From: Thermoproteota archaeon
Lineage (GTDB): Archaea > Asgardarchaeota > Jordiarchaeia > Jordiarchaeales > Freyrarchaeaceae
NCBI GenBank assembly: GCA_029258835.1
Contig: JAPDJY010000008.1
Coordinates: 1 to 64,000, forward strand
DNA: 64,000 nt
Direction of reading: 5' to 3'
Of the stretch, positions 1 to 63,298 are shown piece after piece. Position 1 is the stretch's first letter. Every line of letters starts with the position of its first letter. Below the pieces are notes generated by a model, which saw only the letters and a program-made list of their open reading frames with translations, was not told the origin of the DNA and did no database searches. The position numbers and the translations under genes are program-made.

Positions 1-1170
1 AACTCCTCCTTTCCGTCCATTCTCCGTAAACAGCGCTAACCCCCTCCATCCAACCCACCTTTTATTACGTTTAAGAGCCACTTCTGCTGCAACTCGAGAA
101 AGAATCCTGCTTCTTTCCTTGATTTTCCATCCCGGTAGCTTGTTAGGCATCCTCGCCGCATACGTATGAGGCCTAGGCGTAAACATTGAAACGTTAACTA
201 TATCTGGCTCCGCCTCCCTTATCAAGCTTACCGTATCGTAAAACTGCTCCTCACTTTCTCCTGGAAAGCCAGCAATTACGTCTGTTGAAACCGTTAGCAT
301 AGGGTAGTTACTTCGGAATTCATCTAGCACCTCAAGAAATTGTTCACGTGTATACTTCCTATTCATGGCATTAAGAACCTCGTTGTTACCGGACTGAACA
401 GGTAAGTGAAGGAACTTGTAGATTTTGGGGTCTTCATACGCCTCGATGAGATCATCTAGCATTCGGATTGCGTGGTTAGGGTTCATCATGCCAACACGAA
501 CCATGAAGGCTCCGTCTAAACTGGTTATCCTTTTCAGTAATTCTGGAAGGCGAACCCCCATGTAATCATATGCCCCGGAGTCTTGGGAGGTTAGCCATAC
601 CTCCTTGCACCCCTCCTTCAGCCCCCTTCTAATTTCTTCGACTATTAAGTCGGGAGGGTACGGGTAAAGCTTCCCCCTAGCTACTCTAACGCAGCAATAC
701 GTGCATGTGCCTTGGCACCCCTCTGAAATGGGAACTATTGCAATTACAGGACGTATTCTTACCCGTGGAAGTCCAAGCCGTACTCTTTTTCCATCACTCA
801 TAAACTGTAAATTCTTCTCCCCTCTCTCAACCCGCTTAATTACCTCCACAATTAATTCTATAGCGTTCGGATCAACGAAAGCTGCATAGTCTGGCGCTAC
901 CCTAACTATTTTTTCAGGGCAAATCTTCGGGAGACACCCTGTCACGACCACCTTCTTCCCGCTCTTACATAATTCAGCTATTTCTCTGAGGCAGACATGT
1001 TCCGCATGCGTCTTGACTCCACAGGTGGAGATAATGACTATTTCTGCTTGCTTGGGTGATGGAGTAAGCGTATAGCCCGCCTTCCCGAGAAGGCCCATGA
1101 TCATCTCCGCTTCTGCCTGGCTCATAGAGCAACCGTGAACGATCACCGACACGTTCACCAATGGAAACAC
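1..1170 (-). CDS. MiaB/MtaB-family radical-SAM tRNA methylthiotransferase. The N-terminus is near 1170 (GTG at 1168-1170 or TTG at 1159-1161). The C-terminus lies at or just beyond the window start.
   Basis: The minus-strand translation gives an MTTase N-domain (…VSVIVHGCSMSQAEAEMIMGLL…), a radical-SAM CxxxCxxC motif (CQGTCTYCC), and a TRAM-like C-terminal region. It is absent from the ORF track because it runs off the window edge. Confidence 0.8.
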   Translation of the reverse strand, partial: MFPLVNVSVIVHGCSMSQAEAEMIMGLLGKAGYTLTPSPKQAEIVIISTCGVKTHAEHVCLREIAELCKSGKKVVVTGCLPKICPEKIVRVAPDYAAFVDPNAIELIVEVIKRVERGEKNLQFMSDGKRVRLGLPRVRIRPVIAIVPISEGCQGTCTYCCVRVARGKLYPYPPDLIVEEIRRGLKEGCKEVWLTSQDSGAYDYMGVRLPELLKRITSLDGAFMVRVGMMNPNHAIRMLDDLIEAYEDPKIYKFLHLPVQSGNNEVLNAMNRKYTREQFLEVLDEFRSNYPMLTVSTDVIAGFPGESEEQFYDTVSLIREAEPDIVNVSMFTPRPHTYAARMPNKLPGWKIKERSRILSRVAAEVALKRNKRWVGWRGLALFTENGRKGGV

Positions 1171-1171
1171 C

Positions 1172-1456
1172 TCACCCCCCGCTTACTGGAGGAAGTATCG
1201 CTATTACGTCGCCTTCCTTAAGGGGGGTCTTCAAGCCGCTTAGCTCATTTATCCCAACGCTGTTAACATAAATGGTAAAGTGCGGTTTTAGCTCTCCGTC
1301 ATCTGAGAAAAGATAGTTCTTCAGCGGTGAACCGTATTTTTCCACCAGCTTTTCAAGTACATCCGATAGTGTGGCTCCTTCGAGTACGTTAACGTCAACT
1401 TCCCTCGTCCCTAACAATTCTCTTAACGCCGCGAAAACCTTAACTTTCACGTTCAA
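1172..1456 (-). CDS. MoaD/ThiS/SAMP-family beta-grasp sulfur-carrier protein, 94 aa, with a C-terminal Gly-Gly.
   Basis: The sequence MNVKVKVFAALRELLGTREV…GDVIAILPPVSGG matches the MoaD/SAMP pattern and ends in GG. Its stop codon abuts the downstream methylthiotransferase start, which suggests translational coupling. Confidence 0.8.
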   Translation of the reverse strand: MNVKVKVFAALRELLGTREVDVNVLEGATLSDVLEKLVEKYGSPLKNYLFSDDGELKPHFTIYVNSVGINELSGLKTPLKEGDVIAILPPVSGG

Positions 1457-1590
1457 TGTGCCCTACCCCTCCCAACTTAAGTTAGCAAGTGAGCAAACAC
1501 CTTCCCTCTCATAGTTTCTAAACTAGAATGGAGAACTCTTAAATATAACTCAGCATTTCGGTTTTCCACAGGATTGCTGGAGGGAAAGCT

Positions 1591-2238
1591 GTGGAGGAAT
1601 TTAGCATTGTAAACGTTGAGGCAGACTTGATTAAAGCTAATGAGCGAATAGCGGAGGATGTAAAGGGTTTTTTCACCGAGAAAGGTATCAAAAGCTTCGA
1701 CATAGTTGGCGCCATAGGTGCAGGTAAAACATCACTTCTAGAACGCATAGTGGAGAAGCTTAAAGGTAAATATAAAATCGTAGTCATTACCGGGGATGTA
1801 ACTACTAGGATAGACGCCGATAGGATCGGAAGGCATGGGGTGGAAACATTCCAGATAAACACTGGGCGGGAATGCGCCCTCACAGCCGCTTTCCTCAAAA
1901 ATGCTTTACAAAGTGTACGGTTAGACAACGTGGACATCGTCTTCGTAGAGAACGTCGGCAACCTCATCTGCCCAGCTGACTATACGCTGGGATGCGATAA
2001 GAGAATAGTCGTCGTAAGCGTCACGGAAGGCCCGTACGTTATCAAGAAACACCCTCTACTGTTTAAAGGCTCAGACATTGCGGTCATAAATAAAATAGAC
2101 TTACGAAGCCTCGTCGATGCAGACCCTGAAGAAATGGTTAAGGACGCATTAGATATAAACCCAAAGATAAAAGTGCTTTTAACCAGCGCGAAAACAGGGG
2201 AAGGCATAGATGAGCTAATATCAGCCATGGGCCTCTAG
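1591..2238 (+). CDS. G3E-family P-loop GTPase, HypB/UreG-like metallochaperone paralogue. The HypB metal-binding CH dyad is replaced by CA.
   Basis: It carries a Walker A motif GAIGAGKTSLL, the ENVGNLICPA switch motif (HypB has IENVGNLVCPA), and an NKID motif. The region INTGRECALTAA corresponds to HypB INTGKGCHLDA. Confidence 0.7.
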   Translation: MEEFSIVNVEADLIKANERIAEDVKGFFTEKGIKSFDIVGAIGAGKTSLLERIVEKLKGKYKIVVITGDVTTRIDADRIGRHGVETFQINTGRECALTAAFLKNALQSVRLDNVDIVFVENVGNLICPADYTLGCDKRIVVVSVTEGPYVIKKHPLLFKGSDIAVINKIDLRSLVDADPEEMVKDALDINPKIKVLLTSAKTGEGIDELISAMGL

Positions 2239-6775: not shown

Positions 6776-6874
6776 GGGCCGATAGCTCAGCTAGGTAGAG
6801 CGCCGGGCTCTTAACCCGGTGGTCGCGGGTGGGTGTTCAAAGCCCCGCGAATTCGAATCCCGCTCGGCCCGCCA
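6776..6874 (+). tRNA. tRNA-Lys(CUU) with an encoded CCA and a 22-nt non-canonical intron (6830..6851) between positions 53 and 54 in the T-arm.
   Basis: Acceptor stem GGGCCGA/TCGGCCC, D-arm GCTC-AGCTAGGTA-GAGC, anticodon arm CCGGG-CUCUUAA-CCCGG. The T-arm GCGGG/TTCGAAT/CCCGC forms only after removing 6830..6851. The intron folds as a 4-bp helix cgcg:cgcg, 3-nt bulges (ggt, aat) and a hairpin. Confidence 0.8.
6830..6851 (+). other. tRNA intron with a relaxed BHB (H-B-h') motif, located in the T-loop.
   Basis: Removal is required for the T-arm to form. H is 6824..6827:6846..6849, the cuts fall after the 2nd bulge nucleotide. Confidence 0.75.
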
Positions 6875-8498: not shown

Positions 8499-8560
8499 AA
8501 CTCTCCCTCAGCAAGTTTAAAGACCTACTTCTACAACAATTATTAATGTAAAAAATTTTT

Positions 8561-9293
8561 ATGAGGCGGGAGGCTTTGAGGGAAACACTTCTTGAAAAGA
8601 AGAAGAGGCTTATAGAACGGTTGAAAATAGAAGGCTTTGTTAGGGATGAAAGGGTGATCAAGGCTTTCCTAAAGGTTCCAAGAGAGAAGTTTCTACCCGA
8701 CGAGTTGAAGGAGTACGCTTATGATGACCGTCCACTTCCGATACCAGGGGGTCAGACGATATCCGCGCCACATAGAGAGTTTACTCTCTAGGCGAGACAT
8801 GTGTGTTTTAATGTGTGACCTCCTAAAACTGTGTGAAGGCATGAAGGTTCTTGAAGTTGGAGCAGGATCAGGCTATCATGCAGCTCTTTGCGCCGAAATA
8901 GTAGCTCCCGAGGAGGCAAGCAAGAAGGGACACGTGTACACCATTGAACGCATGAAGGAACTAGTGGATTTTTCTAGGAAAAACCTTGAGAGGGCTGGTT
9001 ACGGGGATCGTGTCACGGTCATTCTAGGCGACGGGACTCTCGGGCACCCTGAAGCCGCACCGTACGATGCTATTTTGGTAACAGCCGCTGGCCCCGACAT
9101 TCCCAAGCCTCTACTTGACCAGCTTGCGCGGGGTGGACGCATGGTCATACCGGTAGGTCGTTTCTACTACAGTCAAACATTGGTCTTAGTGGAGAAAGAC
9201 GAGAAGGGCCGTGTCAGGAAAAAGGACTATGGAGCCGTGGCATTTGTACCCTTAGTCGGGGAGTACGGCTGGAACAAACCTTACCTAGGATAA
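8561..9293 (+). CDS. pcm: Protein-L-isoaspartate O-methyltransferase interrupted by a 25-nt putative BHB intron. The CDS is join(8561..8771,8797..9293).
   Basis: ORF 8561..8791 encodes the PIMT N-terminus and ends …[12 protein letters not shown] 8721..9293, in a +1 frame, encodes the remainder: MCVLMCDLL…[11 protein letters not shown] (motif I)…[12 protein letters not shown]. Joining across the 25-nt excision gives a continuous PIMT. Confidence 0.8.
8772..8796 (+). other. Putative mRNA mini-intron (relaxed BHB) within pcm.
   Basis: Central helix cgcc(8766..8769):ggcg(8791..8794). Bulges aca(8770..8772) and aga(8795..8797). Intron hairpin tagagag:ctctcta (8773..8779:8784..8790). Cuts after the 2nd bulge nucleotide remove exactly the 25 nt that restore the frame. 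Confidence 0.65.
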
Positions 9294-61552: not shown

Positions 61553-63151
61553 CTAATCCTTCAATTTTTTGGAAACGTATACCCCGTCTCTTCTGTATCC
61601 ATGCTTATAATAGTATTCCTTTGCTCCAAGACCTGATAGCACTAGGATTTTTCTTGCATCGTAGTCTTCCCTCGCCACCCTCTCAGCCTCTTCCAATAGT
61701 TTACTTCCATACCCTTTATGTTGCCACGCATCATTAACCCGTTCACCAAGAGGAACTAACGGCCCATAAACGTGAAGCTCCCGCACCACTACGGATTCTG
61801 TCTTTGTAATTTCCGGCCTATGAGCCTTCTCTGAAGGCCGCCTTAACCTAATGAATCCTATGAGCGCCCGCCGATCTAACGTTTCATAGGAAATGAATGC
61901 TTCCTCCCCCTCCGAAGCCGGGTACTTCTCTACATACAGTTTTACCTCTTCATGTGATGGAGGTTTCCCTCCTCTCCGCAGATAATGCCCTACTTCCCTG
62001 CATCTTATACAGTTACACCTTTTCCCTTCCATTTGCAGCCTTTCTAAGACAAGTTCTCTAAGGTTGCTTTTTTTGACTCCATCTATTATGAGGTGGGCAG
62101 GTATGTCCCTCTGCACGCGCTGCACCCTAATCCAGTAAGGAATGGTCTTCTTGGCTTGGGCGATAACCTCTATAACGGTTTCAGTAGGGTATGGCTTATA
62201 CTCTCCTTTCAAATACATGTCATAAAGCTTCGTGCCCTTAAGCACGAGGCAAGGGTATATTTTTAGTCCATCCGGTTTAAAGCGTGAATCGTTAAAAATG
62301 GTTTTAAAGACGTTAACATCTAGCTCGGGGGTTGACCCAGGGAGGTTAGGCATAATGTGAGCGGTAACCTTTAAGCCAGCATCCTTTGCAATCCTAAATG
62401 CTTCCACTACGTCTTCTACGGTGTGCCCTCTCTGAATCAATTCGTATATCTCATCGTAAATAGTCTGTACGCCTATTTCCACTTTCGTCGCCCCTAGAAA
62501 CAGCATCCTGTCTACATGATACTCTCTACAGTAGTCGGGCCTAGTTTCAATCGTTATACCAACATTCCTTATCTCAGACCTTTCTGCTGCCTCCTTAGCT
62601 TCTTCTATGCCTAAGGAGTTCACCCCTGTAATAGCGTCTAAGCATCTCTTAACAAAGTAGTTTTGGTAGCTTTCTGGGGTAGCTAGGAACGTTCCTCCCA
62701 TTATCACCAGCTTAACCTTACTTCTATCGACGGGGTGCCCTATCCTTTCGAGCTGCTCCAGACGAGACCTAACCTGCATGTATGGATCATAATTGTTTTC
62801 TATGGCGCGCATCGTTGCGGGTTCACGGCCTGTGTAAGACTTTGGGACGCCTTCGCCTCCAGGACAGTATATGCACCTTCCCGGACACGGGAATGGAGGC
62901 GCCATAACCGCAATTATTAAAATGCCGGAAATAGAACGCGTCTCCTTCCTTCTAAGGACCCGAACCAGCCTCGCCTTCTCCTCCTCAGTAGCATAGGATA
63001 GAATTTTAACGTTACTGGGCACACTTCTTAATCCATACCTTGCACAGACTTGCCTTTTCACTTTCCTAAGTTCCTCACCTTTTAGCAGAAGATTAATAAT
63101 CTCCCTGCAAGCCTTCTCCTCAATAGATACCTCTTGGCTAACGGTGTACAT
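61553..63151 (-). CDS. elp3: Elp3-like radical-SAM/GNAT acetyltransferase.
   Basis: Radical-SAM CxxxCxxC (CPGRCIYC) and a C-terminal GNAT domain. The start is the ATG at 63151, with a GAGGGGTG Shine-Dalgarno sequence 7 nt upstream and a TATA box further upstream. Confidence 0.85.
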   Translation of the reverse strand: MYTVSQEVSIEEKACREIINLLLKGEELRKVKRQVCARYGLRSVPSNVKILSYATEEEKARLVRVLRRKETRSISGILIIAVMAPPFPCPGRCIYCPGGEGVPKSYTGREPATMRAIENNYDPYMQVRSRLEQLERIGHPVDRSKVKLVIMGGTFLATPESYQNYFVKRCLDAITGVNSLGIEEAKEAAERSEIRNVGITIETRPDYCREYHVDRMLFLGATKVEIGVQTIYDEIYELIQRGHTVEDVVEAFRIAKDAGLKVTAHIMPNLPGSTPELDVNVFKTIFNDSRFKPDGLKIYPCLVLKGTKLYDMYLKGEYKPYPTETVIEVIAQAKKTIPYWIRVQRVQRDIPAHLIIDGVKKSNLRELVLERLQMEGKRCNCIRCREVGHYLRRGGKPPSHEEVKLYVEKYPASEGEEAFISYETLDRRALIGFIRLRRPSEKAHRPEITKTESVVVRELHVYGPLVPLGERVNDAWQHKGYGSKLLEEAERVAREDYDARKILVLSGLGAKEYYYKHGYRRDGVYVSKKLKD

Positions 63152-63298
63152 TAACCGGCACCCCTCATAGTACTGTTCTCTTCGAAAGGGTAAAATATAA
63201 ACTCTTTGTGCTACACGGATTTTACTTTCATTGGTCATATTTATTACGTGATCTCTTCTTTAGGAGTTCTTGGAATTACCAAGCGCGAGGTGAACCCC

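Follow-up and report, generated by a model that had tools for sequence, protein, structure and literature searches.

The first 2,238 nucleotides of the sequence analysed here, a 64-kb window (the whole stretch, positions 1 to 64,000 of contig JAPDJY010000008.1 from a Jordarchaeales archaeon), hold three genes that we read as two independent units. One is a bicistronic operon encoding a small ubiquitin-like protein (Ubl) and a radical S-adenosylmethionine (SAM) tRNA methylthiotransferase (MTTase) predicted to be of the archaeal e-MtaB type, and the other is a divergently transcribed Asgard form of the GTPase HypB. We give this reading a probability of roughly 45 per cent, and it is with the same reserve that the conservation of the operon is taken as an argument that it is functionally linked to tRNA sulfur modification. 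The pairing of the Ubl and MTTase genes is itself real, lineage-restricted and recurrent in three Asgard lineages. All of the parts come from known families; what is new is the Ubl–MTTase linkage and a HypB subfamily without the usual histidine (His-less).

The three genes lie where a preliminary description of the sequence had placed them, and Pfam and NCBIfam scans put their family assignments far beyond chance. The features of the region are as follows.

1..1161, minus strand: predicted e-MtaB/CDKAL1-type radical-SAM tRNA (t6A37) methylthiotransferase, N-terminal 387 codons (TIGR01578, Pfam)
1168..1173, minus strand: Shine-Dalgarno-like GAGGTG at the Ubl/MTTase junction (sequence reading)
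1172..1456, minus strand: SAMP1/MoaD-type ubiquitin-like protein with predicted beta-grasp fold, 94 aa, free C-terminal Gly-Gly (ThiS, SAMP1, moaD_arch, AlphaFold2 model)
1457..1590, no strand: divergent intergenic region, 134 nt (sequence reading)
1591..2238, plus strand: HypB-family G3E GTPase, 215 aa, Asgard-specific His-less (Cys-Ala) subfamily (TIGR00073, 2HF8, neighbour-joining tree)

The Ubl–MTTase pair

The MTTase gene leaves the window at its start, the full gene (429 aa) being found at L001:10287-11576. The truncated 387-aa fragment reaches 386 bits with TIGR01578, the model for the archaeal and eukaryotic e-MtaB type (cutoff 315), and scores far under every cutoff of the bacterial MiaB, MtaB and RimO equivalog models. 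Pfam matches to UPF0004 (2e-19) and Radical_SAM fall within the window, and the TRAM domain (PF01938; 22.6 bits against a cutoff of 21) lies outside it, in the full-length protein (P0124). In the MTTase alignment (A1) the ligands of the auxiliary cluster, Cys14, Cys50 and Cys79, are invariant or nearly so, and C152, C156 and C159 of the radical-SAM CxxxCxxC motif, found here in EGCQGTCTYC, are invariant. The enzyme is thus a predicted e-MtaB, an orthologue of CDKAL1 for the formation of 2-methylthio-N6-threonylcarbamoyladenosine (ms2t6A) at position 37 of tRNA, and it shares the three domains and the six cluster cysteines with the other members of its family (TIGR01578; characterised archaeal members in PMC10702137). 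In itself it is no different from other e-MtaB proteins; only the conserved Ubl gene upstream is unusual, one having been seen at 1 of 76 other archaeal loci listed.

The Ubl ends in LPPVSGG with the stop codon directly after the second glycine. It matches Pfam ThiS at 3.6e-17, clears the cutoffs of NCBIfam SAMP1 (84.5 bits against 60) and of moaD_arch (83 bits against 49.5), and stays under that of the bacterial moaD equivalog (41.5 bits against 66). An AlphaFold2 model built from the single sequence (mean predicted local distance difference test score 81.7) is closest to SAMP1 of Haloferax volcanii (3PO0, template modelling (TM) score 0.86/0.91), with SAMP1 4HRO (TM 0.84-0.86 for 3PO0/4HRO), MoaD, CysO and Urm1 among the further matches in the PDB, and it gives the protein a beta-grasp fold. 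The likeness to the Haloferax SAMP1/UbaA system therefore covers the modelled fold (TM 0.86, 37 per cent identity), the SAMP1 equivalog cutoff and the C-terminal Gly-Gly. Haloferax SAMP1 is tied to molybdenum cofactor (Moco) synthesis and to protein conjugation and is not known to be tied to an MTTase. The window Ubl gene differs in standing in a predicted operon with e-MtaB, with no E1 (activating enzyme) or MoaE gene nearby, and the copies of the Freyarchaeum type (Frey-type) carry tails past the Gly-Gly.

At the junction of the two genes the Ubl stop codon, TGA at 1172-1174, is overlapped by GAGGTG, with a TTG start for the MTTase 6 nt further on. The gene caller placed the MTTase start at GTG 1170, leaving a gap of 1 nt after the Ubl stop; TTG 1161 or GTG 1158, 10-13 nt after it, is more likely the start because the spacing from the ribosome-binding site is better and a spacing of about 10 nt is matched in the Jordarchaeales locus L009. 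The overlap of GAGGTG with TGA is the predicted junction for coupled translation of Ubl and MTTase. That these two genes form an operon had been proposed in the preliminary description, and the proposal is borne out: the unit is tight and bicistronic, is present in every Jordarchaeia/Freyarchaeia-type (Jord/Frey-type) locus recovered, and the pair recurs in two loci outside that clade, L060 and L039, in the second split by a TnpB-like insertion.

The trio of HypB-like gene, Ubl and MTTase was present in all eight distinct Jord/Frey-type loci recovered. The order of a HypB-like gene divergent from Ubl, followed by e-MtaB, a ribbon-helix-helix (RHH) gene and FtsZ, is kept in Jordarchaeales (L009/L010), in Freyarchaeum deiterrae and its relatives (L007/L008, L101, L104), and in L112 and L113, where the MTTase is only 50-51 per cent identical. 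Across these loci identity drops to 50 per cent for the MTTase and about 43 per cent for the Ubl, with a gap between the two genes of 1-12 nt in most and of about 42 nt in L113. The synteny around the trio also keeps GT4, RHH and FtsZ genes.

A background set was assembled from 80 diverse archaeal e-MtaB loci among the matches listed, a sample and not a census, with none from Jordarchaeia; 76 of them were usable in having enough upstream sequence. Adjacent Ubl genes were sought there both with a profile search and with an independent screen for small open reading frames (ORFs) ending in Gly-Gly, and one locus in the 76 had such a gene. This is L060, from a metagenome-assembled genome (MAG) labelled Thorarchaeota, with the order GcvPB, PAC_bac, Ubl, MTTase (11 nt after the Ubl) and Gfo/Idh/MocA. 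In L039, from Borrarchaeum weybense, a Ubl gene lies 1.6 kb upstream of the MTTase and a TnpB-related ORF of 435 aa stands between them (L039:2541-3848, strand not stated; 33 bits with TIGR01766, cutoff 32), which looks like an insertion of the IS200/IS605 type into a former Ubl–MTTase pair. The constant placement of the Ubl before the MTTase within Jordarchaeia/Freyarchaeia hints at a shared job without proving one.

The Ubl is too divergent for a word-index homologue search, which returned only three proteins. With a narrow Ubl alignment as query eight metagenome loci were found, of which the four informative ones are all of the Jord/Frey type. With the SAMP1 model the MTTase-linked Ubls score 85, 65, 55 and 49 bits, against 33 for a MoaE-linked homologue and 30 for a ThiF-linked one. 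The Frey-type orthologues have variable tails of 2-15 residues past the Gly-Gly (TR, TDSNPFAGMLR, SLNTLRLTVF, INSSIYTCILSLNCE and others), which in most loci extend to the MTTase start, so that a protease would first have to trim these proteins for them to serve as carrier or modifier. The tailed orthologues are at the following positions.

L007:7512-7829, strand not stated: tailed Ubl orthologue
L101:4001-4315, strand not stated: tailed Ubl orthologue
L104:4001-4318, strand not stated: tailed Ubl orthologue
L112:4666-4995, strand not stated: tailed Ubl orthologue
L113:4668-4958, strand not stated: tailed Ubl orthologue

According to the supplement of the paper on Freyarchaeia genomes (PMC11291895), the complete Freyarchaeum genome has four K03636 (moaD/cysO) genes, including gene 680 and gene 2988 (3.23 Mb), and a single moaE, gene 1616, which is absent from the gene calls of the 16.7-kb L007 locus. 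The Ubl as the sole MoaD of its organism was a candidate rejected on that count of four, and since there are several paralogs a dedicated one is possible.

Downstream of the MTTase and just past the window start, at L001:11676-13080, a gene for a 75-aa RHH_1 (CopG-type) protein and FtsZ follow, and these are kept in all Jord/Frey loci; they resemble the cdrS-ftsZ2 unit of haloarchaea. In the Thorarchaeota-labelled MAG a PAC_bac gene (6e-35; L060:2192-2563) lies directly upstream of the Ubl. This arrangement recalls the ThiS-PAC2 linkage in Thermoplasma noted by Makarova and Koonin (PMC2948915).

The divergent HypB-like GTPase

The HypB-like protein scores 241 bits with TIGR00073 (cutoff 121) and matches solved HypB structures at 1e-61 (Methanocaldococcus jannaschii 2HF8, over its full length), 1e-48 (2WSM) and 2e-30 (4LPS). 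The GTPase motifs are intact, with the P-loop GAIGAGKT, ENVGNLICP and INKID, so that with 2HF8 and the HypBs bearing the Cys-His (CH) motif it shares the P-loop, ENVGNLICP, NKxD and both metal-binding cysteines, those of the GRECALTA motif and of ENVGNLICP. It departs from them in lacking His96 and His100: where NTGRECALTAAF is aligned to NTGKECHLDAHL of 2HF8, both histidines are replaced by alanine. The replacement of CH by Cys-Ala in GRECALTA, pointed out in the preliminary description, is real and is conserved across an Asgard clade.

Among the 120 best HypB-like homologues, 96 have Cys-Ala or, rarely, Cys-Ser or Cys-Cys at this place, in two types, that of Jord/Frey (CALTA) and that of Loki/Thor/Hod/Hermod (CALNSYH). 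The His-less sequences come out as a single clade in a neighbour-joining tree of 76 representatives, with a bootstrap of 98/100, or 95/100 when the motif columns are left out. Position 95 is the only alignment column that is invariably His in the CH-type (44/44 sequences, the residue being His96 in 2HF8) yet Ala in 94 per cent of the clade. In the family as a whole the CH motif is present in 103 of 107 motif-bearing representatives at 50 per cent identity, a set that does not resolve the His-less clade, its members having collapsed under CH-type representatives. A one-off mutation or sequencing error was rejected as the source of the His-less state given the 96 homologues and the 98 per cent bootstrap, and a polyphyletic origin of the Cys-Ala sequences was rejected by the tree, also without the motif columns. 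A literature search pairing HypB with Asgard gave no match.

The genes around the clade bear on what the protein does. No hyp or hydrogenase gene is present in any of nine contexts of His-less clade members, an observation that weighs against a role in hydrogenase maturation. One canonical HypB among the CH-type controls adjoins HypA; another, on an Asgard-like contig with an Arf/Ras GTPase gene, is without hyp neighbours, and gene context alone is therefore not diagnostic. In the genomes of the Loki/Thor/Hod type the His-less gene has a conserved context of another kind: it comes after a zf-AN1/M50-like membrane protein and a further membrane protein (zf-AN1 at one locus, weakly rhomboid-like at others) and ahead of an Lsm + Lsm_C gene, in these neighbourhoods.

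L011:5788-9141, strand not stated: Loki/Thor/Hod-type His-less HypB neighbourhood, no hyp genes
L107:3761-7150, strand not stated: Loki/Thor/Hod-type His-less HypB neighbourhood, no hyp genes
L108:3837-9098, strand not stated: Loki/Thor/Hod-type His-less HypB neighbourhood, no hyp genes

Jord/Frey genomes encode [NiFe] hydrogenases of groups 3c and 4, and hypA/C/D/E/F are listed for the complete Freyarchaeum genome (PMC11291895), so that the function of HypB is needed. With these genes present and both cysteines kept, the loss of His alone is no proof of a role outside hydrogenase maturation. The nickel site of Helicobacter pylori HypB uses four cysteines, and on that precedent the loss of His would not exclude nickel binding. 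Most likely the Asgard form would still insert metal (nickel) into [NiFe] hydrogenases, by way of a Cys4 site at the dimer interface, and the His-less HypB is probably still a metal-insertion GTPase. A live possibility, suggested by the lost His and the non-hydrogenase neighbours, is that the Asgard-wide clade may consist of metallochaperone GTPases that serve something other than hydrogenase.

The spacer between the HypB-like and Ubl genes (1457-1590) has AT-rich, TATA-like stretches on a reading of the sequence, such as AAATATAA near 1541-1548, and ribosome-binding sites of the GGAGG type precede both of the genes that flank it. The preliminary description was right about the divergence and off by one in the length, given there as 135 nt. 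That length is not conserved, being 129-174 nt in L009, L007 and L112 and about 850-1020 nt in L104 and L113, the last with an additional called ORF inside the spacer. Rfam and tRNA scans of 1-2238 gave no match.

Possible sulfur donation and competing explanations

Under the favoured reading the Ubl would be one of several SAMP/MoaD paralogs, adenylated and thiocarboxylated by an E1 of the UbaA/MoeB type encoded elsewhere, and the thiocarboxylated form would feed sulfur into Fe–S-dependent tRNA thiolation. It would be co-expressed with e-MtaB since the two would share the anticodon loops of one set of tRNAs as their target, and the sulfur could be accepted either by e-MtaB itself, at its auxiliary [4Fe-4S] cluster, or by the thiolase that makes 2-thiouridine (s2U) at position 34. 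The HypB-like gene would stand beside this unit through local synteny only. Known systems offer a template for such a donor in TtuB–TtuA and Urm1–Ncs6, which carry out tRNA 2-thiolation and which likewise join a Ubl sulfur carrier to an Fe–S tRNA-sulfur enzyme acting on the anticodon loop or the T-loop. The partner here differs in being a radical-SAM MTTase with an auxiliary cluster and not a PP-loop ATPase, and the pairing here is known from genes alone. In the available text of Makarova and Koonin (2010), archaeal Ubls of the ThiS/MoaD family are ancestrally tied to tRNA sulfur modification, a ThiS–TRAM linkage is noted and a role in thiolation of the MiaB type is speculated upon (PMC2948915). 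The linkage described in those sections concerns a stand-alone TRAM neighbour in Pyrococci, not a Ubl–MTTase operon, and it predates Asgard genomes.

Several observations weigh against a functional tie between the Ubl and the MTTase, for which gene adjacency is the sole evidence. No E1 gene is present in 74 kb (the 64-kb window and 10 kb past its start), a stretch that also lacks MoaE, hyp and hydrogenase genes, and the nearby cognate E1 for which the preliminary description proposed to look was accordingly not found there. Most of the Asgard e-MtaB genes in the background sample (Odin, Heimdall, Thor and unclassified Promethearchaeota) have no Ubl beside them. The closest Ubl homologues outside the clade (39-40 per cent identity) have MoaE as their immediate downstream neighbour, in Bathyarchaeia, or a ThiF-type E1 immediately upstream. 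In Thermococcus kodakarensis, deletion of all three Ubls lowers s2U derivatives and leaves ms2t6A and 2-methylthio-N6-hydroxynorvalylcarbamoyladenosine (ms2hn6A) unchanged (PMC11323500). In Atabeyarchaeia, by the listing in the supplement, FtsZ, a K03636 sulfur carrier and GcvPB are consecutive with no MTTase between them (PMC11291895). The wider block of GcvP, Gfo/Idh/MocA and FtsZ also shows partial synteny from one lineage to another, so that Ubl and MTTase could be neighbours through inherited gene order.

That last possibility is the core of the main competing explanation, in which there is no specific link at all: the Ubl would be a general SAMP1/MoaD paralog serving the tungsten/molybdenum cofactor and protein conjugation, and it would adjoin the MTTase because an ancestral Asgard order of GcvP, Ubl, MTTase, cdrS-like RHH and FtsZ has so far stayed unbroken in these lineages. 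In both the structural and the hidden Markov model comparisons the top match is SAMP1, which in Haloferax is the Moco-linked Ubl, and this, the MoaE- and ThiF-linked homologues, the need of Frey/Jord for tungstopterin for many aldehyde oxidoreductases, and the flanking synteny of FtsZ, GcvPB and Gfo/Idh/MocA common to L060, Atabeya-1 and Jordarchaeia all point the same way. However, a Ubl identity as low as 32-47 per cent still goes with the short junction and its ribosome-binding site over the stop codon, and the other MoaD paralogs of Freyarchaeum, together with a moaE gene (1616) outside the L007 calls, imply that the MTTase-linked copy is not needed as a partner of MoaE. We consider this explanation doubtful, if the most serious of those that compete with two independent units. 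A more specific proposal, raised in the preliminary description in the form of a dedicated thiocarboxylated carrier, which we hold to be unlikely and which is argued by analogy, is that a dedicated SAMP1-like thiocarboxylate docks on e-MtaB and would recharge its auxiliary [4Fe-4S] cluster by passing sulfur to the free iron site, in Jordarchaeia/Freyarchaeia and in the Thor-labelled and Borrarchaeum lineages; the cluster-bound sulfur would then be methylated by SAM and moved to C2 of N6-threonylcarbamoyladenosine (t6A) at position 37. The thiocarboxylate TtuB-COSH gives sulfur to the free iron of the TtuA [4Fe-4S] cluster, and with this precedent for delivery from a Ubl thiocarboxylate to an Fe–S cluster the chemistry is plausible. 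The tight, conserved pairing in three Asgard lineages and the presence of several MoaD paralogs, one of which could be dedicated, are in its favour, as is the want of an identified physiological donor for the MTTases, an exogenous sulfur donor on the second cluster having been postulated and not identified (PMC5372739). Yet ms2t6A does not depend on the Ubls in T. kodakarensis (PMC11323500), an adjacent Ubl is missing at 75 of the 76 usable archaeal e-MtaB loci among the matches listed, the two genes are separated in Atabeyarchaeia, and the MTTase shows no docking domain beyond the three domains that are standard for its family.

The preliminary description had gone further and joined all three genes into a module for sulfur and Fe–S delivery, in which the His-less GTPase would carry a metal or an Fe–S cluster on its Cys4 dimer site and rebuild the auxiliary cluster of the MTTase together with the Ubl. 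The divergent arrangement is indeed kept in all Jord/Frey-type loci recovered, and the clade has lost an otherwise invariant histidine. Conservation of the trio nevertheless holds inside Jordarchaeia/Freyarchaeia (eight of eight loci) and fails outside: a HypB-like gene was found within 4 kb at none of the 80 background e-MtaB loci among the matches listed, the Ubl-bearing L060 and L039 included. Elsewhere in Asgard the His-less gene has the other context already described, beside zf-AN1/M50-like and rhomboid-like membrane proteins and Lsm, and the spacer that would hold the module together varies from 129 to about 1020 nt, with the added ORF in L113. The module is not supported as proposed and is highly improbable. 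Little credence is likewise given to regulatory conjugation, by which the Ubl would form covalent conjugates (sampylation or urmylation) with e-MtaB or other translation factors and would link tRNA modification to proteasomal control. Such a role would suit the L060 Ubl, placed between a gene resembling a proteasome assembly chaperone (PAC_bac) and the MTTase, and the post-Gly-Gly tails of 2-15 residues in the Frey-type proteins, which call for a protease as in modifiers of the ubiquitin type; all three Ubls of T. kodakarensis form conjugates. But genes for a JAMM protease, an E1 or a proteasome were not found in the 74 kb that surround the locus, and the free Gly-Gly of the window copy fits either role.

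Surrounding genes and wider meaning

Exact matches of the locus occur on MAG contigs, for example in GCA_029856875.1, and the best homologues of the HypB-like protein and the MTTase bear the labels Jordarchaeales and Freyarchaeota, which places the window in an Asgard archaeon of the Jordarchaeia/Freyarchaeia group. The remainder of the window and the 10 kb past its start carry housekeeping genes, including aIF5B, Trm5/Tyw2, FEN1, A-ATPase, Elp3 and RHH-FtsZ, along with genes of purine and of lysine/arginine biosynthesis. The Elp3 homologue (radical SAM and GNAT; tRNA U34 5-carboxymethyl (cm5) modification) is at 61553-63238 on the minus strand of the window, too distant from the Ubl–MTTase pair to suggest a link.

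Two further observations concern this surrounding sequence. A tRNA-Lys(CUU) gene of 99 nt (6776-6874, plus strand) encodes its CCA end and has an insertion, probably an intron, in the region of the T-arm. The mechanically assigned start of the Trm5/Tyw2 ORF (6833) falls inside this tRNA gene, and the true start of Trm5/Tyw2 must therefore be further downstream. The gene for protein-L-isoaspartate O-methyltransferase (PCMT; 8560-9293, plus strand) is in two ORFs of different frames, split directly after the conserved GQTISAPH, and the same split is seen at L001:2161-2878 and L009:13453-14173. The gap between the two PCMT gene calls is the same 7 nt in Jordarchaeales, and either a conserved split gene or a programmed frameshift could account for the break.

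The source of sulfur in vivo for the radical-SAM MTTases (MiaB, RimO, MtaB and the human CDKAL1 and CDK5RAP1) is an unresolved problem. If neither the tie to tRNA sulfur modification nor a new HypB client holds, the locus comes down to three ordinary housekeeping genes in conserved synteny. The His-less subfamily is annotated automatically as 'hydrogenase nickel incorporation protein HypB', a label that may be wrong for hundreds of genomes, and the genomes concerned serve metabolic reconstructions of the eukaryotic ancestor. A conserved operon in which a Ubl precedes an orthologue of CDKAL1 offers experiment a defined pair of proteins, and does so in those archaea that are nearest to eukaryotes; if true, donation of sulfur by a Ubl to e-MtaB would be the first sulfur relay to be defined for a methylthiotransferase.

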